Assembly: GCA_965209085.1 (NCBI GenBank)
Contig: OZ242376.1
Coordinates: forward strand, 928,001-992,000
Length of the DNA: 64,000 bases
From: Nitrosopumilaceae archaeon
GTDB taxonomy: Archaea; Thermoproteota; Nitrososphaeria; Nitrososphaerales; Nitrosopumilaceae
Direction: 5' to 3'
Shown one piece after another: positions 18,041-37,515 of this stretch (positions are counted from its first letter, which is position 1; every line of letters starts with the position of its first letter). Below the pieces are notes generated by a model. That model was given only the letters and a program-made list of their open reading frames with translations, was not told where the DNA came from and did not search any database. Position numbers and translations under genes: made by a program.

Positions 18041-18078
18041 TCATGTATCTTAAAACAGACCGGTAAATGATTAAGAAT

Positions 18079-18201: not shown

Positions 18202-18234
18202 ACAATACGTACATGTGTAACCCATATAACGTAT

Positions 18235-18651: not shown

Positions 18652-18694
18652 CCATACATGATTTAGCTAGGCTTAAATTATACGTTTCAAAAGT

Positions 18695-19441: not shown

Positions 19442-19448
19442 GCATATA

Positions 19449-20243
19449 ATGACTGCAATAGCAATACCGGATTCATGTCTTGTTGACGAACGTACCCAGG
19501 TTGACAAATCGCGCAAGTTATCCCAGTTTGCAAGAACGTGCGCAGTGTTTGGAGTAAATACAATATACGTGTACGAGGATGGCGGCTCAAATTCGGATTT
19601 GGATCTATTGGTTGTGATTTTACGCTACATGGAGACGCCTCCATTTTTACGAAGAAGGCTGTTTCCAAAAGTTTCCGAATTAAAATATGCTGGAATTTTA
19701 GCGCCATTAAACATACCCAGTCATTCCAGTCCGCCCAATCCAAAAAAAATATCCGCCGGTAACATCCGTTCTGGCATTGTCGTATCGCAAAGGGGGAAAA
19801 AATACCTGGACATTGGAACGCCAGAGCCCTTCCCATACAGGGGAAAAACCGAATCAGGCAGGCGTACGGCGATAAAATTCAAAGCCGGATATCCGGAATT
19901 TGTTTACGAAGAGGTGGAAGAGACTGATTATTCCGGATATAAAACGCGTGAGCGCGGCTCGCTTGCAAATATTATCAAATCATGGGAGGGTCCTGTCATA
20001 CTCACCTCAAGGAAGGGGCGCGCCATCACGTCAGGGGATGTTAAATCCTTTGTGGCATCCAAAGGAAAGACGCTTCTTGCGTTTGGAAGCACCGAGAGGG
20101 GCGTTGGTGAAATTCTTGGAGGCCATGTAAAAACAATGCAAAATGCAAAAACTTTGAATTTCTTCCCCGGACAAAAAACACAAACCGTGCGTCTTGAAGA
20201 GGCGATGTTTGGATGCCTTGCTGTGCTGCATTCGGGGGCATAA
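19449..20243 (+). CDS. SPOUT-family RNA methyltransferase (DUF171/MTH1-like)
   Basis: AIPDS, YMETPPFLRR, GILAPL, PGQKTQTVRLEEA; start at ATG 19449. Confidence 0.82.
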   Translation: MTAIAIPDSCLVDERTQVDKSRKLSQFARTCAVFGVNTIYVYEDGGSNSDLDLLVVILRYMETPPFLRRRLFPKVSELKYAGILAPLNIPSHSSPPNPKKISAGNIRSGIVVSQRGKKYLDIGTPEPFPYRGKTESGRRTAIKFKAGYPEFVYEEVEETDYSGYKTRERGSLANIIKSWEGPVILTSRKGRAITSGDVKSFVASKGKTLLAFGSTERGVGEILGGHVKTMQNAKTLNFFPGQKTQTVRLEEAMFGCLAVLHSGA

Positions 20244-20251
20244 GATAACCC

Positions 20252-20359
20252 ATGGAGGGGAGACCATTTTTGCTGCTAGCGATAGGACTTGGAGCGTTTG
20301 GCGTTTGTGCCGGAGCCATCACCATATACTGGATGATTGAAAATATTTTACAACCCTAG
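20252..20359 (+). CDS. Small membrane protein (35 aa; not in ORF track)
   Basis: MEGRPFLLLAIGLGAFGVCAGAITIYWMIENILQP*, 8 nt after the methyltransferase stop. Confidence 0.6.
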   Translation: MEGRPFLLLAIGLGAFGVCAGAITIYWMIENILQP

Positions 20360-20570
20360 ATATTCGTCTTTGTTAGAGCGGAACTTTTTGCTTTCATCAT
20401 AACCGGGGTTAACATTTGATGCGATCTGGCAAGATTTCATTAAAACGGCTCTGAGCAAAAGCTTTTTTGGTCGTTTACGTTTATGATCTAAAAGATTTAC
20501 GGTATGTTTTTGATTTTAATCATGACTAGCGATTTAATTTTAGAAACTCTAAAATAGAAATATCAGAGTT

Positions 20571-21272
20571 TTGAAATTGATGATTCATAAGACAAGTTAT
20601 CAATCAATTCTGATAAATGATTTACTTGGACGATCACTAAATAATGTTGAAGCGAAATTTGCACCAAAGATGATTTTCTGCAAAGGTTCTATGGAAATCC
20701 CCATACCATGTCCAAGAGTCTCCATTATTGGTTCTAGAAAGGCATCAGATAGAGGACTTTTAGAAGCTAGAGAAATTTCAAAGATTTTGGTTGAAAATAA
20801 AACAACAATAGTAAGTGGACTTGCAAAAGGCATTGATACGGCAGGACATAAAACTGCTATAGAATATGGCGGTAGAACTATTGCAGTAATCGGAACTCCA
20901 TTAAACAAAGTATACCCAAAAGAAAATTCCAAGTTACAGGAAGAAATTATGAAAAATCATCTAGGTATTTCACAATATCCAGTTGGTCATTCAACTGTAC
21001 CTAAAGATTTTGTATTACGAAATCTAACTATGGCACTAATCTCAGATGCTACTGTTATTGTAGAAGCAGGAGAATCAAGCGGTTCATTGCATCAAGGCTG
21101 GGAAACGCTAAGAATAGGCAAACCGTTGTTTATTTGTAAAGATATGGTTGATGATGATAAATTAAAATGGCCAAAAGAAATGATACGGTATGGAGCTATG
21201 AGGCTTGATAATTCAACAGATATTTTAAAAAATTTACCAACAAATATTAAAATGCCAGAATTGTTTCAATAA
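20571..21272 (+). CDS. dprA: DprA/Smf-family (SLOG) protein
   Basis: VSIIGSRKAS, VSGLAKGIDT..H, TIAVIGT, YPKEN, F..RN..MA, VEAGESSGS. Confidence 0.88.
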   Translation: MKLMIHKTSYQSILINDLLGRSLNNVEAKFAPKMIFCKGSMEIPIPCPRVSIIGSRKASDRGLLEAREISKILVENKTTIVSGLAKGIDTAGHKTAIEYGGRTIAVIGTPLNKVYPKENSKLQEEIMKNHLGISQYPVGHSTVPKDFVLRNLTMALISDATVIVEAGESSGSLHQGWETLRIGKPLFICKDMVDDDKLKWPKEMIRYGAMRLDNSTDILKNLPTNIKMPELFQ

Positions 21273-21281
21273 GGACTTGAA

Positions 21282-21416
21282 ATGAAGATATCCGAAATAA
21301 AATTTGGTTCATTATCAACTTTTACGCCAAAAACAGTAATTTCAACTGTGATTCATTTTATCCTAAATTTGCCTCAAATTCACGATAAATCCGAACAGAT
21401 CAATATGCCTCAATAG
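21282..21416 (+). pseudogene. Probable truncated 5' remnant of the DprA partner gene
   Basis: Starts 9 nt after dprA (MKISEIKFGSLSTFTPK...) and ends after 44 codons. Confidence 0.35.
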
Positions 21417-21440
21417 GATCACAATTGAGAGTGTTCACCC

Positions 21441-22140
21441 GGCTCTGTCCATGAATAAAATCAAAAACATACCATAAAGCTTTTAGATCATGAACGTAAA
21501 TGACCGAAAAAGCTTTGGATCAGTAGATCAGAGCCAATGTAATGAAATCAACAAAGCACAAACGACGAGGAAATCTTGCCAGATCACACCAAATGTTAAC
21601 CTCGATTATAATGAAAGCAAAAAATCAAGTGGTAAAGCCATGGAAACCAAGTCCGTTAGGACAAACCGGCTTTGACCACCTATCTTTCACGTAACATATG
21701 CACATTCGTAGAAAAGATCGGACAAATTCCTGTAATAATGCCAAGAAAAGGTGTTCGCGTACGTGGATTTGACGCAATGGGCAAAGATGGCATCATGATA
21801 ATCCTGATGAATTTCTATCCATATACTGCAAACGCAGCAACGTAGAGGCCACGTTTTCATCCATGAAGAGAAGGTTTTCATCCACTCCGAGTGCCCGCAA
21901 ATTTGCAACACAGAAAATTGAATTGGGCTTCTTTGTCGTGCCATAATATTCACATTCTAGATGCCGCAGTCTAGATTCTGACACTTTGTGTCAGATATGA
22001 TCCTAGCGTATGCTATACTCTAAAACCCAATATTTGCAATACTGGCAAGATGAGCAGGGCTTGATAATGATGGACATGTTGTATAATTTTGAATGAATTT
22101 AATCGGATTTTTATAAAAAATGCTCATTCATGGACAGAGC
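21441..22140 (+). mobile_element. Internally deleted IS5/IS903-group element (non-autonomous)
   Basis: Both IRs present; ~21690-22140 closely matches ~36990-37458; transposase fragmented. Confidence 0.8.
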
Positions 22141-22186
22141 TCAATACACGATCACGCTTATATACAAAATACACATATTATATAAT

Positions 22187-25039
22187 ATGAATAATACTGT
22201 TCCAGCATTAACATTTTTTTTCACACTTTTATTAATCCCTGCAATTCCACCAAATTTTGCAGATACAAATGTAGACGAAGCACACAACATTGCGACACAG
22301 AAAATGATCCAGCGGCATATTAACCTGCAATTTGGAGCGAGTAATTCGCCTCCTGTAAACGCAACAGCCAACACACCATCGTACATACCAATAATATTTT
22401 CAGCCGTGGACAATGATACACTAGTGGTAGGCATAGATGCACGCGTACTATCTGAAAACATAACGTACACAGAACAGCAGATTGCAGATTATATTGGCAT
22501 CAACGCTTCAATTGATATCAAATACATGAGCATCTCTTCGGATTCTTTAAGGATTAATTCCAATGAAAATTTACATCTTGAATTCCTAGCCGATATTTGT
22601 CATCCAATCATAGCCCTTGATTTTGAAGACAAATGTGTGAAATTTTTTACAGAATTGACAGCTGGAAACGTACTGACCAAAAACAACCCCCTGTCGGGTC
22701 AAAACTCCCCTAGCATGAACAACCCATGCGATGATTCGCTTTCTAGTCTTGCTTGTTATTTTTATAACCAGTATATTGCAAAATGCATACCAACTTATAC
22801 CAGATCTAGATGTGCATCTTATGCTGCGTTCATTACAAACGGTGGATATACCCTCCCAACAAGCTCGACAATATCTGACACCGTACCTCCAGTTATTACC
22901 ATACCTGACGATATTGTAAAGGTTGTATCTGGCACTAGTGCATATGTGGATTATCAAGTAAGCGCAACTGATAATGTTGATGAGACAGTTTCTGTCACAT
23001 GCAACCCGTCTAATAATGTATTTCCACTTGGAACTACTAGGGTAACATGCAGTAGCATGGATACCTCACAAAATACCGCAAGAGAGTCTTTTACGGTAAC
23101 TGTTACACAAAACACGCTCCAGTCTTCTGATACGGTTGTGTTTTCAGATGATTTTGAAAACGGACTTTCCAAATGGGTCGTATCTGGTGAGCTAAGGTGG
23201 AGAACTGGTCAATTAGACGAGAATGTTGCAATTTCAGGACACACAATTTCAAACAACGTTGCAGAAGCTGATGACTGTGATCGAGAATGCATATTGGAAA
23301 TGAGAAACGGTGTTGATTTATCCGATGTTACTTCTGCAACCCTTGAATTTTACAGATTTGTGGACAATAGCTTGGACCGGGGAGAATATCTCAAAGTAGA
23401 GGCATATGATGGCACATCGTGGAATCAACTGGCAATATACGGAGATGATTATGATACTAACGATGATGCATGGCATTTTGAAACCTTGGATATCTCAGAT
23501 TATACAAACTCTGATTTTAAAGTAAGATTCATCGTACTTGCAAGTAGCAGATCCGAAGACGTGGGAGTGGATGAAATTGCCATACGTATTAGGACATCCG
23601 TAACAGATCTGCCAACCATATTCTCGGATGATTTTGAAAACGGATTGTCTAAATGGACAAAAACAGGTGACTACAACTGGAACGATGAAACATTAGATGA
23701 TGGTGTAATAATCGATGGTTTTGATATCTCAAATCTTGTCGCACAGGCAGATAACTGCGACAATGTGTGCTTTTTGACAATGGCACAATCTGTTGATTTT
23801 TCTTCGGCATCTTCAAAATCACTCATATTTGACAGATTTGTTGATTCATCTTTGGATAGAAATGAATATTTACGCGTTGATGCATATGATGGCATATCGT
23901 GGACATATTTGGAAACATATGGTGATAATAACAACAAAAATGACAAAGAATGGCATAATGAAATCATAGATTTATCCGCATACACAAATGATGATTTTAA
24001 GATAAGATTTGTCGCCCAGACTAGTAAAAGTAGCGAAGAGGTGGCAGTAGACAACATACAGTTAAAGACAGGTGATTCGATTTCCACAATACAATTATCA
24101 AACATCACAGTTTATGCCGCGGAGCATGAAAGTAAACGCGTATCTTACAATCTGAACGCGCAAGGTGCTGCATCCGATGTCACTGTAATAAGATGCGACC
24201 CGCCTAGCGGATCGATATTCTCATCAACAACATCGGTCGAATGTATCGTGGACAGCATATACGGACCGTTCAAATACTTGTTTACGGTTTTTTTCAAACC
24301 TCCAGTTGAAATCTATGGAGGAACACCACATGTATTTTATCCGTCTCCTACTGCTAATGGATCTGCGGGTACAATAACAACAGGAGTTACAACCACTAAT
24401 GGCCATCATGGTGTTGTAGTGGCAGGTCATACCATAAACGCACCACGCAACTTTTACGAACCAACGCACGTAATTCCATTGTCACATAATCTGGATGATT
24501 TATCTAATACAGTGGTATTTTCCACATTGAATGGAATTGGTACTACTATTGGAAATTATGACGCGGCATTTATTCGGACAAGTAATAGTGACACAACTGC
24601 ACCATTAAACCACGTACGAATGTTAAACGGTACTATATTCACTGTAACTCATGGCACTTTATCTGACGTGGAAGTTTTGTCCACGATTAACATATACGGC
24701 CAATATAATAATAGAGATGGGTTACTTATTTTCAAAAACGCAACATTAGATAATACTCGAGGAACATTGACTGAAATGGGAATTGGTAATTATAAATCTA
24801 TAGATGGCGATAGTGGTGGTCCTATTGTTTATCATGGAGATGGTGCCGTACTTGTGGGTTTACATGGTGGTTCTGTTTGTATATTTACGCCCGAAGATGC
24901 CAACACTATAGATGTCAGTAATTCATCATTTTGTAATTCAAATATTATTATCACATCTCAAAATGGCGATTACCACAATGTATATTATAAATACTTCAGC
25001 GCATGGGAAAACGTAAAAAATGGTCTCAACGTACGATAA
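22187..25039 (+). CDS. Secreted multidomain S1/chymotrypsin-like serine protease (signal peptide, HYR domain, two tandem beta-sandwich repeats, C-terminal protease domain)
   Basis: DTVPPVITIP/SATDNVD/FPLGTT HYR motif; two FSDDFENGLSKW repeats; catalytic motifs VVAGH, YDAAF, GDSGGP. Confidence 0.75.
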   Translation: MNNTVPALTFFFTLLLIPAIPPNFADTNVDEAHNIATQKMIQRHINLQFGASNSPPVNATANTPSYIPIIFSAVDNDTLVVGIDARVLSENITYTEQQIADYIGINASIDIKYMSISSDSLRINSNENLHLEFLADICHPIIALDFEDKCVKFFTELTAGNVLTKNNPLSGQNSPSMNNPCDDSLSSLACYFYNQYIAKCIPTYTRSRCASYAAFITNGGYTLPTSSTISDTVPPVITIPDDIVKVVSGTSAYVDYQVSATDNVDETVSVTCNPSNNVFPLGTTRVTCSSMDTSQNTARESFTVTVTQNTLQSSDTVVFSDDFENGLSKWVVSGELRWRTGQLDENVAISGHTISNNVAEADDCDRECILEMRNGVDLSDVTSATLEFYRFVDNSLDRGEYLKVEAYDGTSWNQLAIYGDDYDTNDDAWHFETLDISDYTNSDFKVRFIVLASSRSEDVGVDEIAIRIRTSVTDLPTIFSDDFENGLSKWTKTGDYNWNDETLDDGVIIDGFDISNLVAQADNCDNVCFLTMAQSVDFSSASSKSLIFDRFVDSSLDRNEYLRVDAYDGISWTYLETYGDNNNKNDKEWHNEIIDLSAYTNDDFKIRFVAQTSKSSEEVAVDNIQLKTGDSISTIQLSNITVYAAEHESKRVSYNLNAQGAASDVTVIRCDPPSGSIFSSTTSVECIVDSIYGPFKYLFTVFFKPPVEIYGGTPHVFYPSPTANGSAGTITTGVTTTNGHHGVVVAGHTINAPRNFYEPTHVIPLSHNLDDLSNTVVFSTLNGIGTTIGNYDAAFIRTSNSDTTAPLNHVRMLNGTIFTVTHGTLSDVEVLSTINIYGQYNNRDGLLIFKNATLDNTRGTLTEMGIGNYKSIDGDSGGPIVYHGDGAVLVGLHGGSVCIFTPEDANTIDVSNSSFCNSNIIITSQNGDYHNVYYKYFSAWENVKNGLNVR

Positions 25040-26336
25040 ACTCTCAATTATCATAGTAGGGATTATCATATCGGCCGCATTTGGTTTTGTATTTCTAATA
25101 TCAGAATACGATTTAAAATTACAGCTTGAAGATAATACAGAACAATCTGTTTCTGAAACAAACAATATAGAACAATATATCTCCAAAGCAAACAATACAG
25201 AACAATCTGTTTCCAAAGCAAACAATATACTTGCCATAAATTTGTACAAAATGCTCGAATCCGACGGTAATAAAAATATCTTTTTTTCACCCACAAGCAT
25301 ATTTGTAGGCATGATGATGGCATACGAGGGTACAAGAAACAATACTGCATTGCAGATGGAAGACGCACTTGACATATCTTCTGATGATAATTCACGCAGA
25401 AATGAAATAAAAGATCTAGTGGAGAGCCTTACAAACCCAAACTCAGATTATGATTTGGACATAAAAAACTCCCTGTGGGTTAGAGATAGTTTTCCAATAC
25501 TCCCCGAATATACCGATACGATGGCTGTCCATTACAACAATACCGTTGGTTCATTTAATGTACAAAGTTCTGATAAAATTAACAAATGGATGAATGATTC
25601 AACAAGGGGAAAGATACCTAAAATAGTAAACTATACGACACTATCGGATCCTGATTTGAATTTCATGATTGTCAACACGATTTTTTTTGATGGATCCTGG
25701 ATGAATGAATTCAAAGTAATAGATTCATATCAAAGTCAACACTCTTACATTGATTTTTGGATAAACAACGTTGAATTTGTAAGAACTAACTCGATGGTGC
25801 GTTCCGGTGAGTTTCAATACAGGCAAATCGACAATGTACAAATACTAAAACTCCCGTACAAGTCTGATCCGCAACGTCTGTCTATGGTAATAGTTCTTCC
25901 CGAAGAGAGGTACGGTATTGCTAAACTTGAAGAAAGACTTACAGCAGAGATATTTGCTGCGTGGGTAGATAGCACAGAGCTACAGAACAGCATTCAAGTG
26001 GTCATACCACCATTCAAATTAGATACAGAATATTCTGGATCGTTAATATCATCATTAAAAAAACTTGGAATAACTGATGCATTTGATAAAAAAAATTCCA
26101 ACATGTTGAATATGTCACCTGCACCTGAATTAAGCATCGACGATATGATTCACAGAGCATTTTTAAACGTGCATGAAAAAGGAACCGTTCCAGCGGATCC
26201 ACTTGTTGTGATGTTTGATGTTTTGAGATTAGCCACAAACACATTCAAAGTGGATCATCCGTTTATATTTGCAATATGGGATGATCAGACTAAAACCATT
26301 TTATTTATGGGTCGAATCTCAGATCCTACCGCATAA
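25020..26336 (+). CDS. Serpin, membrane-anchored/secreted (copy 1)
   Basis: NIFFSPTSI, INKWM...TRGKI, IVNTIFF.GSW, LPYK, SMVIVLP, F.VDHPFIFAI, ILFMGRI.DP. Confidence 0.92.
   Translation: MVSTYDKLSIIIVGIIISAAFGFVFLISEYDLKLQLEDNTEQSVSETNNIEQYISKANNTEQSVSKANNILAINLYKMLESDGNKNIFFSPTSIFVGMMMAYEGTRNNTALQMEDALDISSDDNSRRNEIKDLVESLTNPNSDYDLDIKNSLWVRDSFPILPEYTDTMAVHYNNTVGSFNVQSSDKINKWMNDSTRGKIPKIVNYTTLSDPDLNFMIVNTIFFDGSWMNEFKVIDSYQSQHSYIDFWINNVEFVRTNSMVRSGEFQYRQIDNVQILKLPYKSDPQRLSMVIVLPEERYGIAKLEERLTAEIFAAWVDSTELQNSIQVVIPPFKLDTEYSGSLISSLKKLGITDAFDKKNSNMLNMSPAPELSIDDMIHRAFLNVHEKGTVPADPLVVMFDVLRLATNTFKVDHPFIFAIWDDQTKTILFMGRISDPTA
25132..25228 (+). repeat. Degenerate 30-bp tandem repeat in serpin N-terminal linker
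   Basis: NTEQSVSETN / NIEQYISKAN / NTEQSVSKAN; also present in copy 2. Confidence 0.7.
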
Positions 26337-26512
26337 TGTCCGTTTAATGGACTGAAAACATGCAAGTCCGATGCACTTGAAGTGTTGGCAGATCCATGAG
26401 TTCGTGGTCCGTGAGACCTTTAGAGTAAGTGAGAGTATCTGTGCTATTGTGTTCCTGAGTTTTGAGCCCTGATAGGTGAGTGCAGCTTTTCAGCCGACAA
26501 AGGAAAAAGGAG

Positions 26513-27553
26513 GTGAAAAACATTGGAATTGACATTGGAAAAAAGACATGCGTAGTGTGTATTGTAGATGATTTTGGTAAAATACTAGAGGAGACAAAAT
26601 ACAACAATACCAGAAAAGATGCCAAAAAATTTGCCATGCGTGTCAAAAAAAAGTACAAAGCGTGCAGAGCAGTATGCGAATCCACCGCCAACATGTGGAT
26701 AAAGACATCGAAGAATTTGAAGTTCAGAAAATATCTATAAAACTAGCAAATCCGTTTAAAACAAAGGCTATAGCACAGGCAAAAATAAAGACCGACAAGC
26801 TTGATGCAAGTCTTGGCACAACTGTGCAGAACGGATTTTGTGGCCGAATGCTATGTGGTATCTATAAGAAATCCTGCGAAAATCGGGATCTTCTCAGGCA
26901 TAGAATACGACTAGTGGAAGATCAGACAAAAGTAAAAGCAAGAGTAATCAGCATACTGGACAAATACGACTTAACCAATACAGAAAAGCACGTTTGGCGT
27001 ACATGGTATTGCATGGCTCAAAAAACAACAATACGATAACGGCAAAGGCAAGGCGATAATATTATCATGCATAAGACAGATTGAGCATATAGATTCAGAG
27101 ATTGGTATGACAGAAGAACTCATCAGAGCAGAAGCAAAACATGACCAGTACGCCAAAACAATGAGTATGATCGGATTTGATTATTTTGGAGCCATGCTGC
27201 TTGCAACGGAAATTGATCGCATTGACAGATTTGATACGCCAAAACAACTTGTCTCATGGTCTGGTATGTGTCCTACAGTACACCAGTCTGGAGATTCGTT
27301 ATATCATGGCAAGATGAAAAAAGATTCAAACCGTAAAGTGAACTGGATGTTGACGCAGGCTGCAAACTCTACGATAAGAGCGGATGGGAGGATGAAAAAA
27401 TACTATCAACGCATACACAAAAAACATCCACACTCGGTGGCAGTAACACACGTTGCAAACAAAATGATAACGATAATCTGGCACATGCTGACAAACGATA
27501 AACCATACGATGTAAAACCAAAACTCTACGCTCAAAAGATCAACTGTGCATAA
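26513..27553 (+). pseudogene. IS110-family transposase, frameshifted, with ~170 nt 5' non-coding end
   Basis: IGIDIGKK, CESTA, KTDKLDA, GMCPTVHQSG spread over several frames. Confidence 0.85.
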
Positions 27554-27574
27554 GGATTAGGCTGATTGGCAACG

Positions 27575-27940
27575 AGGAATCAACCATTGTGTCCGGATTG
27601 CTTACATAGGTGTTTTTCTGAAAGATGGCATTCTCTGCCAAGATGTTTATGTTGTATATGGAGGTTAGTCCATCCTCCATTACCCTGTATGAGTCATTGG
27701 CATATTGTTGTCTCTTTTACACCAAATTCCTCGCCAATCTCCTCCATTGTTTTGCCCTGTTTTCTTTTAATCCATGAGAGAAGACGCTGTTTTTGCAACT
27801 GGAATCTTTTCTTTTGCATGACAATTTCCAAGATATGCGTTGAGTTGTTTGCTTAGATTGTCCATATTGTGATGGATGTTGTACCGATCAAAAAGTTTTA
27901 CTGTTTATGCAATATGAAAAGACTTTTGCTCATGACTATA
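27575..27940 (-). pseudogene. IS630-family 5' remnant (HTH region)
   Basis: Minus strand QRLLSWIKRKQGKTMEEIGEEFGVKETTICQ*L...GRECHLS; TATAGT-type end near 27940. Confidence 0.5.
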
Positions 27941-27999
27941 GGGTCTGCCAACACTTCAAGTGCATCGGACTTGCATGTTTTCAGTCCATTAAACGGACA

Positions 28000-29328
28000 T
28001 TATGCGGTAGGATCTGAGATTCGACCCATAAATAAAATGGTTTCAGTCTGATCATCCCATATTGCAAATATAAACGGATGATCCGCTTTGAATATGATTG
28101 AGGAGAATCTCAAAACATCCTCCATCGCAGCAGGTGGATCCGCTGGAACGGTTCCTTTTTCATGCACGTTTAAAAATGCTCTGTGAATCATATCGTCGAT
28201 GCTTAATTCAGGTGCAGGTGACATATTCAACATGTTGGAATTTTTTTTATCAAATGCATCAGTTATTCCAAGTTTTTTTAATGATGATATTAACGATCCA
28301 GAATATTCTGTATCTAATTTGAATGTTGGTATGATCACTTGAATGCTGTTCTGTAGCTCTGTGCTATCTATCCACGCAACAAATATCTCTGCTGTAAGTC
28401 TTTCTTCAAGTTTAGCAATACCGTACCTCTCTTCGGGAAGAACTATTACCATAGACAGACGTTGCGGATCAGACTTGTACGGGAGTTTTAGTATTTGTAC
28501 ATTGTCGATTTGTCTGTATTGTACATTCTCAAATTGTCTGTATTGTGCACCACCGGCACGCACCATCACGTTAGTTTTTACAGATTCAACATTGTTTATC
28601 CAAAAATCAACGTAGCCTATTCTATCTTCTGCTATGAATTCATCCATCCAGGATCCATAAAAAAAAATCGTGTTGACAATCATGAAATTCAAATCAGGAT
28701 CCGATAGTGTCGTATAGTTTACTATTTTAGGTATCTTTCCCCTTGTTGAATCATTCATCCATTTGTTAATTTTATCAGAACTTTGTGCATTAAATGAACC
28801 AACGGTATTGTTGTAATGGACAGCCATCGTATCGGTGTATTCGGGGAGTATTGGAAAACTATCTCTAACCCACAGGGAGTTTTTTATGTCCAAATCATAA
28901 TCTGAGTTTGGGTTTGTAAGGCTCTCCACTAGATCTATTATTTCATTTCTGCGTGAATTATCATCAGAAGATATGTCAAGTGCGTCTTCCATCTGCAATG
29001 CAGTATTGTTTCTTGTACCCTCGTATGCCATCATCATGCCTACAAATATGCTTGTGGGTGAAAAAAAGATATTTTTATTACCGTCGGATTCGAGCATTTT
29101 GTACAAATTTATGGCAAGTATATTGTTTGCTTTGGAAACAGATTGTTCTGTATTGTTTGCTTTGGAGATATATTGTTCTATATTGTTTGTTTCAGAAACA
29201 GATTGTTCTGTATTATCTTCAAGCTGTAATTTTAAATCGTATTCTGATATTAGAAATACAAAACCAAATGCGGCCGATATGATAATCCCTACTATGATAA
29301 TTGAGAGTTTATCGTATGTTGAGACCAT
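28000..29328 (-). CDS. Serpin (copy 2, variant reactive-centre loop)
   Basis: Near-identical to 25020-26336 except two variable blocks. Confidence 0.92.
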   Translation of the reverse strand: MVSTYDKLSIIIVGIIISAAFGFVFLISEYDLKLQLEDNTEQSVSETNNIEQYISKANNTEQSVSKANNILAINLYKMLESDGNKNIFFSPTSIFVGMMMAYEGTRNNTALQMEDALDISSDDNSRRNEIIDLVESLTNPNSDYDLDIKNSLWVRDSFPILPEYTDTMAVHYNNTVGSFNAQSSDKINKWMNDSTRGKIPKIVNYTTLSDPDLNFMIVNTIFFYGSWMDEFIAEDRIGYVDFWINNVESVKTNVMVRAGGAQYRQFENVQYRQIDNVQILKLPYKSDPQRLSMVIVLPEERYGIAKLEERLTAEIFVAWIDSTELQNSIQVIIPTFKLDTEYSGSLISSLKKLGITDAFDKKNSNMLNMSPAPELSIDDMIHRAFLNVHEKGTVPADPPAAMEDVLRFSSIIFKADHPFIFAIWDDQTETILFMGRISDPTA

Positions 29329-29954
29329 TTTTTACGTTTTCCCATGCGCTGAAGTATTTATAATATTTATTGTTGTATTCGCCATTTTGGGATACAGTTA
29401 TACTTGAATTACAAAATGATGAATTACTGACATCTATAGTGTTGGTATCTTCGGGTGTAAATATACAAACAGAACCAACATGTACACCCACAAGTACGGC
29501 GCCATCCCCATGATAAACAATAGGAGCCCCATTATCGCCAATTCTAGATTTATAATTGTCAATTCCCATTTCAGTGTATGTTCCTTGAATACTATCTATT
29601 GTTACGTTTTTGAAAACAAGACTCCCATCATCATTATTATATTGACCGTATATGTTAATCGTGGACAAAACTTCCATGTCAGATAAAGTGCCATGAGTTA
29701 CAGTGAATATAGTACCGTTTAACATTCGTACGTGGTTTAATGGTGCAGTTGTGTCACTATTACTTGTCCGAATAAATGCCGCGTCATAATTTCCAATAGT
29801 ACCAATTCCATTCAATGTGGAAAATACCACTGTATTAGATAAATCATCCAGATTATGTGACAATGGAATTACGTGCGTTGGTTCGTAAAAGTTGCGTGGT
29901 GCGTATATGCTATGACCTGCCACTACAACACCATGATGGCCATTAGTGGTTGTA
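29309..29954 (-). pseudogene. 5'-truncated copy of the S1 protease domain, catalytic Ser replaced (GDNGAP)
   Basis: Aligns with the C-terminal ~215 aa of 22187-25039; the ORF-track start lies inside IS3 sequence. Confidence 0.8.
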
Positions 29955-31194
29955 TGGTGCGGATCCCTGTACAATGAGAACGTTTTTTGCATTAAAAATG
30001 ATAGGATCGGAGGGCTTATTTTATCATTGCCCTCCGTGCGAGACCAAATTCTGATGGCACCACACATCCTATTGCAGTGTACCTGGTTCTGATTATAGTC
30101 CTCAAAGGCGTATGATATTGCATTCTCTGCGTCCTAGAACGGCTCAAAGTCGCGCGGCCAGACATACTCTTTCTTGAGATTCTTGTGGAAGGATTCCACA
30201 TGAGCATTTTGCTCTGACGTGTGATAGTGGATGAATTCCTGCCTCACACCGTATACTTTTACAGCCTTGTCAAATTGCGCTAAAATATACTGGGAACCGT
30301 TGTCGGTTCTTAAAACAAGCTTTGAGCAGTCTGGTTTCTTGGATGCCAAAGCTTCAGTTAATGCTGCAATTGCACCGTCGGTAATAGCTCTTGACTCAAA
30401 CGCATATCCGACCCATTCGCGGGTAAATGCAAAGGATGTTGAATAGGTAACACCATCTGTCCTGACCGCACCAAATGTACGTCATGTCAGCTTTCCAGAG
30501 CTGATCCGGTCCTACAGGTTTTAGGCGCTTCCTTGAGCGAATAATCTCTTTTTTGGGTTTTGCAGACACACTCCGGCCCAGATAATGGTATATTTTCTTC
30601 ACTTTTTTGCAGTTTACTGGCCTGCCCGTAATACGGGACATGGTGGCAGCCATTCTTCGTGTTCCATATGTGGGTCTGCTCTGAGCAACCTGATGCACCA
30701 TCTTTGAGATTTCCTTGTCGATTTGAATAATGCGTGGTTTTTTCGGAGCGTACAGCATATTGTTTGATATTCCGGTATAACGTATGGATTTGCGTGTACT
30801 GAGGCCTTGTTTTTGCATGAGGGTCAATGCTTTCATTTTGTGCTCTCCTCTAACGTTTTTTTTAAAGCATCATTGGCTATGGTTAGATCTCCAATGATTC
30901 TCTTCAACTTGTCCATCTCATGATCGTGCTTTTTACTCTCATTACGATTATACGGTTTTTTTATGCCTGCCTTGCCACATTCAAAGAATATGTCCCTCCA
31001 CCGGGTAAAGGATGCCGGATTTATGTTATGTTTGCGACACAGTTCTGCAGGAGTGATGTGCGTGTTTATTGACTCCATGACGATACGCACCTTTTCGTCT
31101 GGAGCATGATGTGGTCTTTTCATTGATGGATACCTCCAAGACTGGGTAAAATTTGTTTCACTTTGGGTGTTCTCATTTTATGGGGTCCACTCCA
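29955..31194 (-). mobile_element. IS3-family element (orfA 30833-31123 intact, orfB frameshifted)
   Basis: TG...CA imperfect IRs (TGGTGCGGATCCCTGTACAATGAGAAC / GTTCTCATTTTATGGGGTCCACTCCA); YGTRR, W.ADMTY, TDNGSQY, NAHVESFH motifs; no target duplication. Confidence 0.88.
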
Positions 31195-31471
31195 ATGCTT
31201 GATATCATATTTTGTATGCTAAAGGATAGGAGTGAATTTGAAATACATTATAGTTAAAGCAACAAACCGCGGGTTAGACTTTGGGGATGTTACCCCGGCT
31301 GCATAACTGCGGTAAGCTTTAACATGTGGATAAATATGGTTGTGGGATTAAATCCTGAATGGATAGATGTCTTTTCATCTTTTGGTTGGAACCAGACACA
31401 TAGTGAAAGCCATACCGCATGACACAAAAAAGCAAGAAACCTTTAAAAAGTATTCACATGGATAAACTCTA
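31195..31471 (+). mobile_element. IS110/IS1111 3' remnant: last codons plus complete non-coding right end
   Basis: Closely matches ~36263-36538. Confidence 0.85.
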
Positions 31472-32122
31472 TTATTCAAAGAGTTTATTCTTGCTAATCG
31501 TACTATCTTCGCCTATTAATCTATCGCCATTTACTTTGTACATGCCATACTCGCTAGACAAAGGCCACCATGCATCTGGAAAAATACGATGAGCTCTATC
31601 CACCATGATAAATACTTGATCTCCCTCATCATATAGTATCCTTGTAGAAGGAAATCTGTTTACAATCTCAATTGTATCGTGTTCATATTCTTCTGTACCT
31701 CCTAGTATTTCATCAACATTGAGAAAATATTTAGTGTATGATGATTCACATCTAGATGTACAATTTTCTTCCGTGACTGTTCCTTTTTCCATCGAAGTTA
31801 TTGTGCCGATCATTACGAGTTGTGCTATATCTTTTATTTCATACGGATCTGTTGTAGTAAATGAACCAAAAGATTTCATAGGTTTGGAATTAATTTCAGA
31901 TGCATCAGTCAAATTCAATGCGTGTGGATTGTCACTTGAGGTTTCTGATTTTTTAGTATTTTTCAAATCATCATTGTTCGTATGTATTTCCGAATTACTC
32001 GTATTCATGTTGTTGGCGGATATTAGTACATCATTACCAATTATGGTATCAGAACTGATAACAAAAACAACAGCTAGACCTGCAAACAATACGGTTAATG
32101 ATAATACAAGTTTTATATTCAT
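31472..32122 (-). CDS. Secreted/anchored protein with TIMP/NTR-like OB-fold sequence pattern
   Basis: Signal/TM segment; AQLVMIGTITS...YTKYFLNVDEILGG...TIEIV...EGDQVFIMV pattern (fold is inference). Confidence 0.55.
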   Translation of the reverse strand: MNIKLVLSLTVLFAGLAVVFVISSDTIIGNDVLISANNMNTSNSEIHTNNDDLKNTKKSETSSDNPHALNLTDASEINSKPMKSFGSFTTTDPYEIKDIAQLVMIGTITSMEKGTVTEENCTSRCESSYTKYFLNVDEILGGTEEYEHDTIEIVNRFPSTRILYDEGDQVFIMVDRAHRIFPDAWWPLSSEYGMYKVNGDRLIGEDSTISKNKLFE

Positions 32123-32269
32123 TAGTACAACCTCATTGCGATCTTACGATCATCTTCATCGATATACGTGTTATCATCATTCGGTCTAATTTTTCCAAAC
32201 ATTACAGAGTCAGGGTTTAAGTTGTGATGCATGCCTGCAATATGACCAATTTCATGCGTCATGACAGTA
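32122..32269 (-). pseudogene. Metzincin (matrixin-like) metalloprotease, C-terminal fragment (not in ORF track)
   Basis: TVMTHEIGHIAGMHHNLNPDSVMFG...RLY*: HExxHxxGxxH plus Met-turn; stop overlaps the next ATG (TAATG). Confidence 0.8.
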
Positions 32270-33667
32270 GACCTCATGCATAATTAACTAAAAAATCAAT
32301 TTTGGCAAATCGAAAGATCTATGATCTAGTATCATGTGAGCATAGCATGTGCAAATCAGACAAACGCATGATCTCTAAACTGGAAAAGACGATCTTAAAG
32401 ATGGAAAAGACGATCCTAAAGATGGAAAAGAATAGCTCCAGGCAGGAATCAGAAATTCAACACTACAAAAAGATGGCACAGAGTAGCAATGATGACAAAA
32501 GACAACATGTCGATAAATATTTGAACAAGGGAATTGGGAATGATGTTCATCTATATGAAATGACAGGAATGAACCGTGAAGAATTTGAATGGATTCTAGA
32601 ACGGTTCAAAAAAACCGTAGAAAATTCATCAGAGATTCCCCGCTTTTCAGAATATGTGGACGATCCTGGAAACACCTGTATCCTTACCGTAAAGCAAGTT
32701 TTGTTTATCGTATTGTGCCGCAAACGCAATAATCTCAAACAGGGAGCACTTGCGTTCATTGCAGACGTTGATCAGAGCACCATTAGCAGATATCTGACAT
32801 TTTCTGATGAACTATTGATGGATATTCTTCCAACGGCTAAGAATATTGGTGCTGCAATACGGACAATACGTACAAGCGAGTTGTTTAAAAAATTCGTACC
32901 CGGCAGAGGCGGCGGCGAGCTATATCTTGATGCCACGTTTGTACAGGTTCAAAGACCGCAGGAGAATCAAGAAACAGTATACTATTCTGGAAAGCGCAAA
33001 AGGCACGTCTACAGCATACAGATAACCTCCAACAAAGATGGAGTGGTAAATGACATTGGCGGTCCAGAAGAGGGCTCAGTACATGACATGGAGGTACTGC
33101 GGCGTAATCCGCCAAATTTTGGCAAATGGACCGATGGCATGAAAAACTCTGATACAAAAAAAGAGCGCCAAATTACACTCTACACCGACAAGGGATACTT
33201 GTCCGTGGAAAAAGACTATCCTGGAATTATCTCAAAGCAGCCATACAAAAAACCAAAGGGTAGGGGATTGACAGAGACAGAACGCGAATATAGCAAGAGG
33301 ATCAGTCGTAAGCGCATAAAAGTAGAGCATGCCATAAACCGGCTCAAATGGTTTCGCAGAATGAGTGCCGTATATGATGACACAATGGATGCATTTTATA
33401 CAGAAATCCAAGTGGTTACAGGACTGACCAATCTGCACATCATGTTAAAGGATCGCAAGTATATCGAACCGTTGGAAAAAATTTGCCCTCAAATCAAGTA
33501 GCACATCTTTGTGCACACGGTTACGCATAATATTCTGCTTTTTGTCATGCATATGATATTTTGATTTATTTTGTTGTCTGCTTGAAGGTTTTAGGCCATG
33601 TGTACTTTGATCATGACAGTGTCATAGTAGGAACCGTATGTCTTTGCAGTTGATTATGCATGAACTC
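32270..33667 (+). mobile_element. IS5-family (ISL2/IS702-like, DDE_Tnp_4) element copy A, intact transposase 32302-33501
   Basis: IRs GACCTCATGCATAATTAAC / GTTGATTATGCATGAACTC with flanking TA; LDAT, YSGKRKRH, GSVHD, DKGY, RIKVEHAINRLK. Confidence 0.88.
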
Positions 33668-33849
33668 TAGTATCATAATGATGTACATTCAAATTACCTC
33701 TACTCACATCCCCAAAAACAAACATATTGTTTATTTCCATATACGTTCCGCCAACTGTAAACTGCCGCTGTACAGTATTAACAGAAGATACAACCCGTGC
33801 CAAGGTATTATCATTTAACATTGGAGACATTTTAACATTAATATTATTA
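33668..33849 (-). pseudogene. Middle fragment of the same metzincin gene, trapped between two IS copies
   Basis: Removing copy A plus one TA joins ...NVHHYDT to TVMTHEIGH in frame. Confidence 0.7.
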
Positions 33850-35190
33850 GAGTTCATGCATAATCAACTGTAAAGACATACGGTTCCTACTATGACACTG
33901 TCATGATCAAAGTACACATGGCCTAAAACCTTCAAGCAGACAACAAAATAAATCAAAATGTCATATGCATGACAAAAAACAGAATATTATGCGTGACCGT
34001 ATGCGCAAAGATGTGCTACTTGATTTGAGGGCAGACTTTTTCCAACGGTTCGATATACTTGCGATCCTTTAACATGATGTGCAGATTGGTCAGTCCTGTA
34101 ACCACTTGGATTTCTGTATAAAATGCATCCATTGTGTCATCATATACGGCACTCATTCTGCGAAACCATTTGAGCCGGTTTATGGCATGCTCTACTTTTA
34201 TGCGCTTACGACTGATCCTCTTGCTATATTCGCGTTCTGTCTCTGTCAATCCCCTACCCTTTGGTTTTTTGTATGGCTGCTTTGAGATAATTCCAGGATA
34301 GTCTTTTTCCACGGACAAGTATCCCTTGTCGGTGTAGAGTGTAATTTGGCGCTCTTTTTTTGTATCAGAGTTTTTCATGCCATCGGTCCATTTGCCAAAA
34401 TTTGGCGGATTACGCCGCAGTACCTCCATGTCATGTACTGAGCCCTCTTCTGGACCGCCAATGTCATTTACCACTCCATCTTTGTTGGAGGTTATCTGTA
34501 TGCTGTAGACGTGCCTTTTGCGCTTTCCAGAATAGTATACTGTTTCTTGATTCTCCTGCGGTCTTTGAACCTGTACAAACGTGGCATCAAGATATAGCTC
34601 GCCGCCGCCTCTGCCGGGTACGAATTTTTTAAACAACTCGCTTGTACGTATTGTCCGTATTGCAACACCAATATTCTTAGCCGTTGGAAGAATATCCATC
34701 AATAGTTCATCAGAAAAGGTCAGATATCTGCTAATGGTGCTCTGATCAACGTCTGCAATGAACGCAAGTACTCCCTGTTTGAGATTATTGCGTTTGCGGC
34801 ACAATACGATAAACAAAACTTGCTTTACGGTAAGGATACAGGTGTTTCCAGGATCGTCGACATATTCTGAAAAGCGAGGGGTTTCTGGCGAGTCTTCAAC
34901 GGCATTTATGAACTGTTTCTGAATCCATTCAAATTCTTCACGATCCATTCCAGTCATCCCGTATAGATAATTGTCATCATCAACCATATGGTTCAAGTAT
35001 TCATAAGCAGATTGTTTTTCGGTCTTATCCCCATCTATCATTTTTTTGTAGCGTTGGTTTTCTGCTTCAAGTTTGGAGATTCTTTTTTCCAACTTGGAGA
35101 TTATACGTTTGTCTGTAGCACACATGCTGTGTGATTGTAATACTTGATCATAGATCTTTCGATTTGCCAAAATTGATTTTTTGGTTAATA
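33850..35190 (-). mobile_element. IS5-family (ISL2-like) element copy B, transposase 34016-35170; left IR truncated
   Basis: Inverted near-identical copy of 32270-33667 over its 3' ~1 kb. Confidence 0.88.
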
Positions 35191-35194
35191 TGCA

Positions 35195-36538
35195 TAACCA
35201 TATGTGAAGGGAGATTCTAAGACCACAGATGGTTGTAAGAATGTCAAACGATCCGTATCACCGAAACGTAAATCATCTAAAAAAGATCCAAATGCAAACA
35301 AACAGATTACCACATATTCTGGGAAGAATATGTTTGTTGGAATGGACGTTCACAAGAAATTTCTTCAAGTTGCAATGATGGATAAAAAAGCCAAAGTGAT
35401 TTTTAATGAGAGGATTGAAAATGAAAACAAGTCCATCAGATGATTCTTCAGATCAAGCGTACCTGAAAATGCAAAAATCGTAATGGAATCTTCGTCCGTA
35501 TGGTACGGATTATATCGATACATGACAGATAAAATGGGTTATAATGTCGTATTGTCAAATCCATGGGCGACAAAAATCATCGCCGCATCCAAGAAAAAGA
35601 CCGACAAGAGGGATGCTGTAACACTTGCAGACCTATTACGGTGCGGATACATATCCCTCTGTCATGTCTCAAACAAGGACATAGTGGAACAACGGCAACT
35701 TGTACGATATCGCGACAGTCTTGTCAAGACAAGGACAACTCTAAAAAACAAAATACATGGAATTTTGTTACAGGGAGGGATAAAGATCTTTGGAGCAACA
35801 TTTACGCTTACATACAATAGAAAACTGCGTTCTCTAAAGGATTACCGTATAAACGGATATTTGGATTCTATTGGATTCGTTAATACAAAAATTGCGGATT
35901 CAAACATAAAGGTACACAACGCATCCTGTTCAAACAAGGATGCAATGTTACTCAAGACAATACCTGGCATAGGTGATTTTATTTCATTGATACTGGCAGC
36001 AGAGATTGATGGAGTTGAGAGGTTTTCTGAACCAAAACAACTCAAATCATATGCGAGTCTTGCCCCATCGGTTCGCAATTCAGCAGATGTGGTCCATCAT
36101 GGACATATAACAAAAAGAGGCAGCAGGATGATGCGGTGGGCACTGGTGGAAGCTGTTACCACCCATGTCCGATTTGCATCAGAGAGTAACATTTCTGAAT
36201 TTTACCGGCGTCTTGCAATAAAGAGAGGATCGTCCAAGGCCAAAGTTGCAGCAGCGGCCAAGATGCTGGATATCATATTTCGTATGCTAAAGGATAGGAG
36301 TGAATTTGAAATACATCATCGTTAAAGCAACAAACCGCGAGTTAGAGTTTGGGGATGTTACCCCGTTGCATAACTGCGGTAAGCTTTAACATGTGGACGA
36401 AGATGGTTGTGGGATTAAATCCCGAATGGATAGATGTCTTTTTACCTTTTGACTGGAAACAAACACATAGCGAAAGCCATACCGCATGACACAAAAAAGC
36501 AAGAAACCTTTAAAAAGTATTCACATGGATAAACTCTA
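35195..36538 (+). mobile_element. IS110/IS1111-type element; transposase 35204-36325 with one in-frame TGA (35441-35443)
   Basis: VGMDVHKK, VMESS, KTDKRDA, IPGIG, LAPSVRNSA, G.ITKRGS; short sub-terminal IR (ATGTGAA/TTCACAT); ~210 nt 3' non-coding end. Confidence 0.88.
36326..36520 (+). ncRNA. Candidate bridge/seek RNA of the IS1111-type element
   Basis: Nested stems ACCGC..GGGG-CCCC..GCGGT and GGGATTAAATCCC; retained in the second copy at ~31258-31450. Confidence 0.45.
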
Positions 36539-37459
36539 ATGCAACAACTGTCATACGATGAACTCGTAGATTATCTTGAAGATTCACCACGTTTACTACC
36601 AATACTGGGCTTGAAAAGAGTCCCGTCAAGGTCAACGTTGCAAGTAGCATCTACTAGAATTGATAAGCATTTCATCACATGGATGATAAATTCTGCAGGC
36701 AGACCTGGAATGAAAGGTACGTGGTACGGGGATTCTACAGGAATTGCAATAAACGGGCATAACACATGGCTTTATGCAATAAACGGGCATAACACATGGC
36801 TTTATGCAAAAAATGGATCAAGGTCAAGACTGGATTATCGCAAATTGCATATTGTAACTGCTGAAAACGGCATAATCATATCATAGGATATTACCCATGC
36901 ACGACGCCATGATGCGCCAATATTTGAGCAAATATGTGACACACTGCCGCACGGTTCCGGTCATGTGATGCTTGATGCAGCATATCTTTCATGCAACATG
37001 TGCACGCTCATAGAAAAGATTGGACGAATTCCTGTAATAATGTCAAGAAAAGGTGTTCGTGTACGTGGATTTGACGCAATGGGAAAGATGCTTCGATGGC
37101 ATCGTGATAATCCTGATGAATTTCTATCCATATACCACAAACGCAGCAACGTAGAGGCCACGTTTTCATCCATGAAGAAAAGGTTTTCATCCACTCCGAG
37201 TACCCGCAAATTTGCAACACAGAAAATTGAATTGGGCTTCTTTGTCTTGTGCCATAATATTCACATTCTAGCTGCCGCAGTCTAGATTCTGACACTTTGT
37301 GTCAGATATGATCCTAGCGTATGCTATACTCTAAAACCCAATATTTGCAATACTGACAAGATGAGCAGGGCTTGATGATGATGAATTGGTGAACATGTTA
37401 TATAATTTTGAATGAATTTGATCGGATTTTATAAAAAATGCTCATTCATGGACAGAGCC
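36539..37459 (+). mobile_element. IS5/IS903-group element, 5'-truncated; transposase pseudogene 36539-37285
   Basis: GDSTG, YRKLH, HDAP, DAAY, YHKRSNVEATFSSMK; in-frame TAG 36884-36886; right IR intact. Confidence 0.85.
36745..36809 (+). repeat. 30-bp tandem duplication inside the transposase
   Basis: TGCAATAAACGGGCATAACACATGGCTTTA x2 (AINGHNTWLY x2). Confidence 0.9.
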
Positions 37460-37468
37460 TGTTCACCC

Positions 37469-37482
37469 CCAAGGGTTATAAC
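37469..37482 (+). promoter_or_regulatory. Probable TATA box of the ribosomal protein operon
   Basis: TTATAA at 37476-37481, ~35 nt before the rpl3 ATG. Confidence 0.5.
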
Positions 37483-37515
37483 GGGGTTAACAACGTTGGA
37501 AAAACTGTAAGAGAA

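Follow-up and report, generated by a model that had tools for sequence, protein, structure and literature searches.

Adjacent partner genes keep secreted proteases from harming several of the bacteria that produce them, and such partners can also disarm host proteases. In the serralysin-Inh/AprI (MEROPS I38) and staphopain-staphostatin systems, for instance, an adjacent gene for a small beta-barrel inhibitor protects the compartment of the producer. The folds and compartments of those systems differ from those of the two protease-partner pairs described here, a secreted serine protease followed by a serpin and a matrixin-type metalloprotease followed by an anchored protein of 216 amino acids (aa), p216. 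Both pairs lie in a stretch of 64,000 nucleotides from an archaeon of the Nitrosopumilaceae (contig OZ242376.1, positions 928,001 to 992,000), which we call the window (G000:C1:928001-992000); its source genome, G000, is 1.69 Mb in a single contig. Three described systems come closer. In Tannerella forsythia several unrelated peptidase classes, the KLIKK peptidases, each have an adjacent partner of their own, a potempin; one of them, karilysin, is a matrixin, and it is inhibited by potempin A (PotA), the adjacent small surface-anchored beta-barrel (OB-fold) protein (PMC9890683). In Listeria monocytogenes a gene for a secreted metzincin, Mtz, is followed by one for Tim, a membrane-anchored protein of predicted TIMP fold with a linker of ~50 aa before its TIMP-like domain, and the pair is associated with mobile DNA (PMC8235301). 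In sponge-associated ammonia-oxidising archaea, serpins lie beside secreted proteases in transposase-rich genomes, and control of the archaeon's own proteases, inhibition of host proteases, or both have been proposed as their roles (PMC6790972, PMC7848895).

Our preferred explanation, which we consider somewhat more probable than its negation, is that the window contains a strain-specific insert saturated with insertion sequences (IS), carrying members of two conserved modules in each of which a secreted protease is followed by an anchored partner that would bind it, and that the IS elements have been agents of duplication and decay. The organism would be an archaeon of the ammonia-oxidiser type, with the insert upstream of a ribosomal-protein operon. 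Module 1 comprises a large secreted S1E-like protease and an overlapping serpin, and module 2 a karilysin-like matrixin and, across a stop/start overlap, a partner in which a linker joins an anchor to a domain of predicted NTR/TIMP fold. Of module 1 a single copy is whole; the protease of its inverted duplicate was destroyed by an IS3 element, and the matrixin of module 2 by two IS5-like insertions. The partner open reading frames (ORFs) are open in every copy. Each anchored partner may bind the cognate protease encoded on the same transcript at the surface of the producer, and its role might then be self-protection or the control of latency, by analogy with the potempins of the KLIKK peptidases. 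For the matrixin module the proposal of binding draws on analogy: PotA, an OB-fold lipoprotein encoded next to karilysin, inhibits that enzyme (PMC9890683). TIMP folds, too, inhibit matrixins. The genes and gene fragments concerned are the following.

22187..25039, plus strand: intact secreted multi-domain protease, with signal peptide, HYR domain, two MAM-like domains (Pfam HYR, MAM) and a C-terminal S1E-like domain
24230-25036, plus strand: S1E-like catalytic domain of the 969-aa protease, C-terminal, ~250 aa, with GDSGGP
25020..26336, plus strand: serpin copy 1, 438 aa, PF00079 positions 2-370 of 370 (E 4.7e-89), with N-terminal hydrophobic anchor
28000..29328, minus strand: serpin copy 2, 442 aa, PF00079 (E 1.5e-87), an inverted duplicate with the hinge of copy 1 and a different distal reactive-centre loop (RCL)
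29309..29954, minus strand: protease remnant, the last 216 residues of the catalytic domain, 86.6% identical to residues 754-969 of the intact protease (tblastn)
31472..32122, minus strand: p216, 216 aa, with N-terminal hydrophobic anchor, low-complexity linker of ~60 aa and NTR/TIMP-like OB-fold domain at ~86-216
32122..32267, minus strand: C-terminal fragment of the matrixin, ~48 codons, VMTHEIGHIAGMHH...Met-turn...RLY and stop
33670..33849, minus strand: middle fragment of the matrixin, ~59 codons, ...GGTYMEINNMFVFGDVSRGNLNVHHYDT, the part of the catalytic domain that precedes the C-terminal fragment

We note that the protease of module 1 is recognisable by fold more readily than by sequence profile. 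Its catalytic domain has no Pfam match, PF00089 is matched weakly by three of ten relatives (best E 0.0034), and a profile search of the PDB gave as its best result a weak match to 2pfe (E 0.011). The AlphaFold model of the domain (predicted local distance difference test score, pLDDT, 73.9) has as its top Foldseek matches NAPase, TFPA, SGPA and alpha-lytic protease (2oua, 2pfe, 2sga, 2alp), with E values of 1.7e-10 to 1e-8 and TMt of 0.72-0.81. In ten aligned homologous domains H58 and D102 are invariant and the catalytic serine, S186, is present in nine, the exception being the remnant in the window. On predicted fold and catalytic triad, the domain is thus S1E-like, of the alpha-lytic protease/streptogrisin type, and the S1 assignment made in an earlier, sequence-only reading of the window agrees with the chymotrypsin fold that Foldseek finds for the model. 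The ORF runs from 22130 to 25039 on the plus strand (969 aa), and its probable start is 22187, from which the product (MNNTVPALTFFFTLLL...) has, judged by eye, a signal-peptide-like N-terminus. An identical 32-nt repeat end (22109-22140 and 37427-37458) holds the first ATG of both this ORF and the ORF of ribosomal protein L3, and the automatic start calls of both are probably too far upstream.

The start of serpin copy 1 lies 20 nt inside the 3' end of the protease gene, and because of this overlap the two genes can be read as sharing a transcript, with translational coupling probable. An overlap of the same 20 nt exists in an inverted duplicate of the 3' part of the operon (arms 92-99% identical overall, serpin arms 97-98%), between the serpin at 28000-29328 and an ORF at 29309-30067, both on the minus strand. 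The sequence-only reading had counted the S1 protease-serpin pair as present twice, and for the overlap this holds; the second protease, however, is a remnant cut by the IS3 element. Its ORF extends into IS3 sequence as far as 30067, with the junction at 29954/29955, and it reads GDNGAP in place of GDSGGP, a change from Ser to Asn at the catalytic serine. Between the remnant and the intact copy, the ratio of non-synonymous to synonymous substitution rates (dN/dS) is ~1.0. In both serpin copies, the N-terminal linker contains three tandem 30-nt units encoding NNTEQSVS-like decapeptides (25134-25229, 29119-29214).

Module 2 is represented in the window by a whole partner and a broken protease. 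The C-terminal matrixin fragment, in a stop-to-stop frame of 53 codons, matches positions 110-158 of the 159 of PF00413 (E 2.4e-9) and has the zinc site HEIGHIAGMHH, which agrees with HExxHxxGxxH, and a Met-turn (SVMF); in the TAATG that follows, the ATG of p216 uses the A of the matrixin stop codon. The metzincin and secreted partner overlapping at TAATG in the sequence-only reading are therefore correct as to the overlap and the partner, p216 being whole, but the metzincin is two matrixin fragments and not a gene. No complete matrixin domain stands in one frame in the window: one IS5-like element, IS-A, splits the gene, and a second, IS-B, replaces everything upstream of 33849. A 213-nt contig from public run X2 contains the empty site of IS-A, joining 32267 to 33672 with one extra letter at 94% identity, which points to a related population or a paralogue that retains an uninterrupted matrixin site. 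The middle fragment is 87% identical in amino acids and 96% in nucleotides to the C-terminal end of a truncated 580-aa protein encoded at genome positions 843695-845437 (L071:696-2435), which itself ends at another IS. This paralogue displays the original architecture of the window's matrixin gene: besides a signal peptide and ~20 NTAPAN repeats it has two HYR domains and a proprotein-convertase P-domain, together with the matrixin domain's N-terminal half. A genome-wide BLAST search of G000 found this matrixin nowhere intact. Because the matrixin is broken in the window, the module is poorly exemplified there.

The partner p216 has no Pfam match, and among 27 members of its family none matched TIMP (PF00965) or NTR (PF01759) at E <= 0.1. 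As a single query it retrieved only four proteins, all closely related, and one real match in 200 genomes; an exhaustive profile search of 1.84 billion cluster representatives gave 30 matches at E <= 1e-3. The model of residues 80-216 has a pLDDT of 91. In VIA-align its matches include agrin NtA (Z 10.6), N-TIMP-3 (Z 9.4), PCOLCE NTR (Z 9.2), meteorin NTR (Z 9.0) and the C3 C345C domain (Z 8.8), and the top five in Foldseek are NtA and TIMP-2 (E 3.3e-4 and 7.6e-3, respectively); generic OB folds rank below NTR/TIMP modules in both searches. Language-model neighbours of p216 labelled TIMP, NtA and NTR, with scores of 0.82-0.87, provide a lead only. The domain is accordingly predicted, from the model, to have an NTR/TIMP-type OB fold, as the TIMP/NTR-type partner of the sequence-only reading had anticipated.

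Both adjacencies recur in related archaea, as the same reading had proposed to check. The family set comprised 401 genomes in 27 genera, and the loci inspected were the best ~30 per search. The p216 profile matched 47 of the 401 genomes and 12 of the 27 genera, a tally that includes G000 and one unpublished genome (G257, which entered this count alone), and it matched 12 of 301 genomes sampled across the phylum. Among the loci listed, a same-strand matrixin ORF (HExxH...[HD]) precedes the partner in 16 of 29 outside G000, and it ends between 44 nt inside the partner's start and 17 nt before it; all 12 full-length upstream ORFs match PF00413, and the best solved relative of these small archaeal matrixins is karilysin (E 2.8e-8 over the whole domain). 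A further check, on co-phylogeny, gave a positive result too: the identity matrices of matrixin and partner are correlated (r = 0.89, with none of 5000 permutations as high), which at the level of sequence shows co-inheritance and is not evidence of binding. The protease profile of module 1 matched 26 of the 401 genomes, in 7 of the 27 genera. A serpin follows on the same strand in five genomes of four genera (G000, G007, G028, G372 and G290), counting also a second locus in G028 and the one in G290, both of which add to the profile loci considered below; the order is always protease then serpin, and the overlap is 29 nt in G007 compared with 20 nt in the window. By a rough estimate, the six protease loci and five serpins among the ~2000 genes of G028 would give <<0.01 adjacent same-strand pairs. 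Both families are rare, so the repeated adjacency in the same order is far beyond chance. The pairs of the relatives lie in ordinary chromosomal contexts, some without an adjoining IS.

Several side observations were made at these loci. In G007 a frameshift or a sequencing error within the first MAM-like domain divides the upstream protease between two ORFs, of 250 and 592 aa, that overlap (L027, G007:C1:1202000-1214000, 5894-8415); nearby, on the opposite strand, there is a serpin fragment of 175 aa whose hinge is degenerate. Some relatives carry several genes of the p216 family, for instance G369:C1 with six matches. At G352:C1:2097327-2117929 a matrixin-partner pair has an S1E-like protease 3.6 kb away, and this suggests that secreted-protease modules form clusters in some relatives.

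Against the proposal that the anchored partners bind the proteases encoded beside them, a number of observations must be set. As regards adjacency, an upstream matrixin is missing at 13 of the 29 p216-family loci listed, of which two are truncated at the end of a contig and six encode the domain within longer proteins; a serpin lies directly downstream of the S1E-like protease in a minority of the loci listed outside G000, 3 of 28 (G028, G007 and G372); the proteases of G176 and G014 have no adjacent serpin; and the protease-linked serpins are not one clade, the serpin tree, in which genomic context is known for only part of the database rows, requiring at least four changes. As regards p216, its domain start at ~G86-S87 aligns with Cys1 of TIMP and has no Cys there, and its sole cysteines, C120 and C124, are absent from the homologue in G133 and not conserved. 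Consequently the TIMP mechanism cannot apply as such, and the TIMP-like inhibition on which the sequence-only reading had drawn is to that extent undermined; between the two copies of p216, dN/dS is 0.72, which means that purifying selection is weak. As regards the serpins, all three linked copies in G000 have the hinge EKGTVPADP, in which P12-P9 are P, A, D and P; of 80 homologues six have Pro at P12, and all six belong to the clade of the window serpins; and dN/dS between copies 1 and 2 is 1.73, with 40.75 non-synonymous and only 6.25 synonymous changes. Finally, Tim of Listeria is a substrate of its metzincin (PMC8235301).

The hinge deserves particular attention. In inhibitory serpins P17-P9 conform to E[EKR]G[TS]x[AGS]4, with small residues at P12-P9, and Pro at P12 is expected by rule to make a serpin a substrate (PMC2770083). 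The window serpins have a full-length serpin fold and do not fit this consensus, so that classical suicide inhibition by them is doubtful and, on their sequences, unlikely; the inhibitor role that the sequence-only reading had put forward is not supported by their hinge. By now they could serve as substrates or decoys, or be genes in decay. A frameshift as the origin of the odd hinge was considered and rejected, the nucleotide alignment showing substitutions. The six P12-Pro sequences are the window's two clusters and four proteins on one 339.5-kb contig of a relative; their flanks are nearly identical, their RCLs are hypervariable, and the clade has a long stem branch (0.74) in the serpin tree. 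Copies 1 and 2 are 93% identical in amino acids with two in-frame indels, and their differences cluster in two patches, one of which includes the RCL; from the register with the s1C anchor, aligned by eye, P1-P1' would be Leu-Arg. Diversifying selection, gene conversion and relaxed constraint all fit this divergence and are indistinguishable here. The paired serpins of G007 (GTEAAAV, with a tolerated Val at P9) and G028 (GAEAAA) fit the consensus, and of the six serpin genes in G000 the three that are unlinked have canonical GTEAAA or GTKAAA hinges.

One alternative is that the partner is not an inhibitor but a substrate, whose linker the protease would cleave so as to release an active NTR- or serpin-fold fragment, as Mtz does with Tim, or else a surface tether for the protease. 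The layout of p216 is that of Tim, namely a membrane anchor, a linker of ~60-85 aa and a TIMP-like domain (PMC8235301), and the Pro at P12 is as a substrate would have it (PMC2770083). On the other hand no cleavage site is known, and a motif conserved at the domain start of the p216 family, S-[YF]-T-T-D-P, where VIA-align places residue 7 of the model against residue 1 of N-TIMP-3, aligns with the inhibitory N-terminal ridge of TIMP and so fits an inhibitor equally well. We regard this alternative as unlikely.

Alternatively, the partners might be aimed at foreign proteases, those of a host or of competitors, their adjacency to the archaeon's own proteases reflecting co-regulation, which would explain why partners outlive proteases. 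Within the window one of three protease genes and all three partner ORFs are intact; genome-wide, the three linked serpin ORFs and both p216 ORFs are open, while two of the three S1E-like genes are broken, as is every copy found of the matrixin paralogue linked to p216. This pattern favours a second, protease-independent use, although the genes are few and chance may account for it. In the same direction point the two indels between the serpin copies, both in frame, the hypervariable RCL in the otherwise near-identical clade of six cluster sequences, and the presence in G000 of the three unpaired serpins, whose hinges are canonical. The expansions of serpins among sponge-symbiont thaumarchaea to which the sequence-only reading referred are indeed in print, with the proposal that these serpins target host serine proteases (PMC6790972, PMC7848895), and PotA inhibits host MMP-12 as well (PMC9890683). 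What counts against foreign targets is that the linked serpins are precisely those with the non-inhibitory hinge, that the conservation of stop/start overlaps across genera speaks for a stoichiometric tie with the protease upstream, and that dN/dS values of 0.72 and 1.73 indicate no clear purifying selection. We therefore give this alternative real weight while holding it to be doubtful, and return to the explanation in which the partners bind the proteases beside them.

The setting of the modules bears on how they came to be in the window. The insert and the elements within it, other than the genes given above, are as follows.

20350..37469, no strand: strain-specific 17.1-kb insert (17,120 bp), between an RNA-methyltransferase-like gene on one side and the ribosomal protein L3 operon on the other
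20571..21272, plus strand: DprA-like gene (PF02481, E 2.9e-49), lying within the insert and flanked by the ends, in inverted orientation, of a multi-copy repeat
21501..22141, plus strand: partial copy of a ~0.9-kb multi-copy repeat, carrying the first ATG (22130) of the protease ORF
26345..27900, plus strand: IS110-family pseudogene, PF01548 and PF02371 spread over ORFs 26480-26740, 26662-27039 and 27107-27553; multi-copy in the genome
29955..31195, minus strand: IS3-family remnant, ORFs 30396-30836 and 30833-31123, with HTH_Tnp_1, HTH_21 and partial rve; multi-copy; truncates the protease
31195..31471, plus strand: IS110 3'-end fragment, in direct repeat with 36263-36538; multi-copy
32268..33669, plus strand: IS5-like IS-A, 1402 bp, DDE_Tnp_4 transposase at 32302-33501, terminal inverted repeats; sits in the matrixin
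33850..35197, minus strand: IS5-like IS-B, inverted, transposase at 34016-35170, 1175-nt inverted repeat at 95%; takes the place of the upstream part of the matrixin
35189..36540, plus strand: IS110-family copy, ORF 35483-36325, PF02371 and PF01548; multi-copy
36538..37458, plus strand: full copy of the multi-copy ~0.9-kb repeat, abutting the L3 gene

In G019, of the same genus, the homologues of window positions 18046-20349 and 37470-38824 are separated by 145 bp as compared with 17,120 bp in the window, and the insert is therefore strain-specific; no match to the serpin, the protease or p216 was found in G019, which is 96% complete. The content of 20350-37469 is insertion sequences and a few cargo genes. 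The block from the IS110 pseudogene to the matrixin stub has a second copy: genome-wide BLAST finds window positions 26345-31124 (98.5% identity) and 31122-32182 (96.9%) again within genome positions 723384-729310. That second locus has the same serpin, the same truncated protease with the Ser to Asn change fused to IS3, p216 at 94% amino-acid identity and, of the matrixin, the last 19 codons only. Because the same truncated protease is found at both loci, the block was copied after the breakage.

These data bear directly on the possibility that the region is a mobile island, in which transposition spreads an effector/immunity-like system of proteases and antiproteases for use against a host or competitors. 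The sequence-only reading favoured an island of this kind, and part of it stands: the insert is absent from G019, and a 5.9-kb IS-bounded block, from the IS110 pseudogene to the matrixin stub, is present twice at 97-98% identity; the mtz-tim pairs of Listeria, moreover, are also associated with mobile elements (PMC8235301). Movement of the pairs as a unit was not seen, however. The duplicated block is the broken version, its second locus having no more of the matrixin than the 19-codon stub; no integrase, target-site duplication around the whole block or intact composite transposon was identified, only the ends of single IS elements being seen; IS copies lie inside the protease genes, interrupting or truncating the pairs; and the relatives' pairs, as noted, are in ordinary chromosomal contexts, some without IS. 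Next to the cargo, the IS110 and IS3 copies are broken too. Since most of the region is wreckage, the case for a mobile protease/antiprotease island is weaker than at first sight, and we consider this possibility distinctly improbable. That the IS elements have been the agents of duplication and decay, and not a vehicle spreading the pairs, is a component of our preferred explanation and shares the modest preponderance that we give to it as a whole.

It might alternatively be argued that nothing in the insert is functional, the whole being accessory DNA decaying under IS expansion in which the open partner ORFs have simply not yet been hit. There are seven IS or repeat copies within the 17 kb; the serpin hinge is degenerate; and the dN/dS values (protease remnant ~1, serpins 1.73, p216 0.72) are in line with such decay. 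Yet the ORF of the 969-aa protease runs uninterrupted through 2.9 kb and keeps the triad, the three serpin ORFs, each of 1.3 kb, and both p216 ORFs are likewise uninterrupted, all their indels being in frame, and the hinge-variant clade persists, with four further members on the contig of a relative. Decay of the whole insert appears to us quite unlikely for these reasons, and the explanation by two conserved modules, damaged by IS elements, is retained in what follows.

Some further features of the region may be recorded. The neighbourhood is archaeal, with genes for proteasome alpha, Snf7 and HerA/NurA/Mre11 and a ribosomal operon (L3-L4-S19-L22-S3), and the homology of the L3 region to G019 begins at 37470. 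The DprA-like gene lies in a region (20385-21623) with inverted arms of 54-74 nt, the right arm being the repeat with >12 genome copies, and G019 has two DprA-like copies at other sites with 84-85% identity; the gene looks mobile or repeat-associated. The 460-bp direct repeats at 21681-22140 and 36983-37458 were considered as attachment sites of an integrative element and rejected, the repeat having >12 copies in the genome. By genome-wide BLAST, IS-A has >20 copies sharing the same ends. The IS load of G000 is very high for 1.69 Mb, with several dozen BLAST matches for IS-A and ~10-20 each for the IS110, IS3 and 0.9-kb repeat families, and fits the transposase enrichment described for some sponge-associated thaumarchaea (PMC7848895).

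If the modules are what we take them to be, the window represents a natural experiment in which proteases have been lost to IS expansion and every partner ORF is still open. One serpin clade has left the inhibitory hinge while its loop diversifies, which bears on how symbionts remodel secreted proteolysis, and the p216 module offers a concrete case on the question whether TIMP-like inhibition occurs outside animals. This leads us to a bolder speculation, which we put forward tentatively and think rather unlikely as a whole: that the p216 family consists of archaeal, sequence-orphan, membrane-tethered inhibitors of NTR/TIMP fold dedicated to karilysin-like matrixins and, in addition, that in this host-associated lineage the partners, p216 and the hinge-altered serpins alike, have been kept and diversified after the loss of their proteases. 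Were this so, the pairing of matrixin and TIMP fold would be older than animals or would have arisen in parallel, and the retained partners would by now have foreign proteases as their targets or serve as decoys.

How, then, does the locus compare with what has been described? The sequence-only reading did not recognise a named system, and yet close analogues exist in KLIKK/potempin (PMC9890683), Mtz-Tim (PMC8235301) and the serpin-protease neighbourhoods of sponge symbionts (PMC6790972). The potempin genes differ in lying upstream of the peptidase, the archaeal partners lying downstream; and PotA is a lipoprotein of 98-132 aa, as compared with the hydrophobic anchor, long linker and NTR-type domain with extra helices of p216 (PMC9890683). 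PotA is absent from the structure matches of p216 listed by VIA-align and Foldseek, which does not show that the folds differ. Mtz-Tim differs in that Tim is cleaved and released by Mtz, and is not shown to inhibit it, and in being bacterial and under the control of a cI/cro switch (PMC8235301); it is compared with p216 by layout and not by sequence. With the animal TIMPs and NTR modules (N-TIMP-3, 3cki_B; TIMP-1; TIMP-2; agrin NtA; PCOLCE NTR), p216 shares the predicted fold (VIA-align Z 9.0-10.6 over 105-111 residues, Foldseek E 3.3e-4 to 1e-2) and, putatively, a matrixin as target, but it lacks the N-terminal Cys1, the conserved disulfides and a Pfam TIMP/NTR match, and it is tethered by its N-terminus, the end that TIMPs need free. 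In the sponge ammonia oxidisers, the adjacency in print is with S08A subtilisin-like proteases, whereas the window's protease belongs to the S1E-like kind and bears HYR and MAM-like domains; for C. symbiosum, the passages cited mention trypsin-like proteases only as neighbours of the liv operon (PMC6790972, PMC7848895). Among the papers listed by one search of the open-access literature, none describes an archaeal matrixin paired with a TIMP-like partner. The arrangement of protease genes with adjacent cognate partners is, in summary, of a kind already known. Two such modules recur in ammonia-oxidising archaea, one of them with a TIMP-type fold and no detectable relation to TIMP in sequence, and what seems to be new is the S1E-like, HYR/MAM-decorated protease as the upstream partner of a serpin, the hinge-altered serpin clade, and the archaeal module of a karilysin-like matrixin with an NTR-fold partner.

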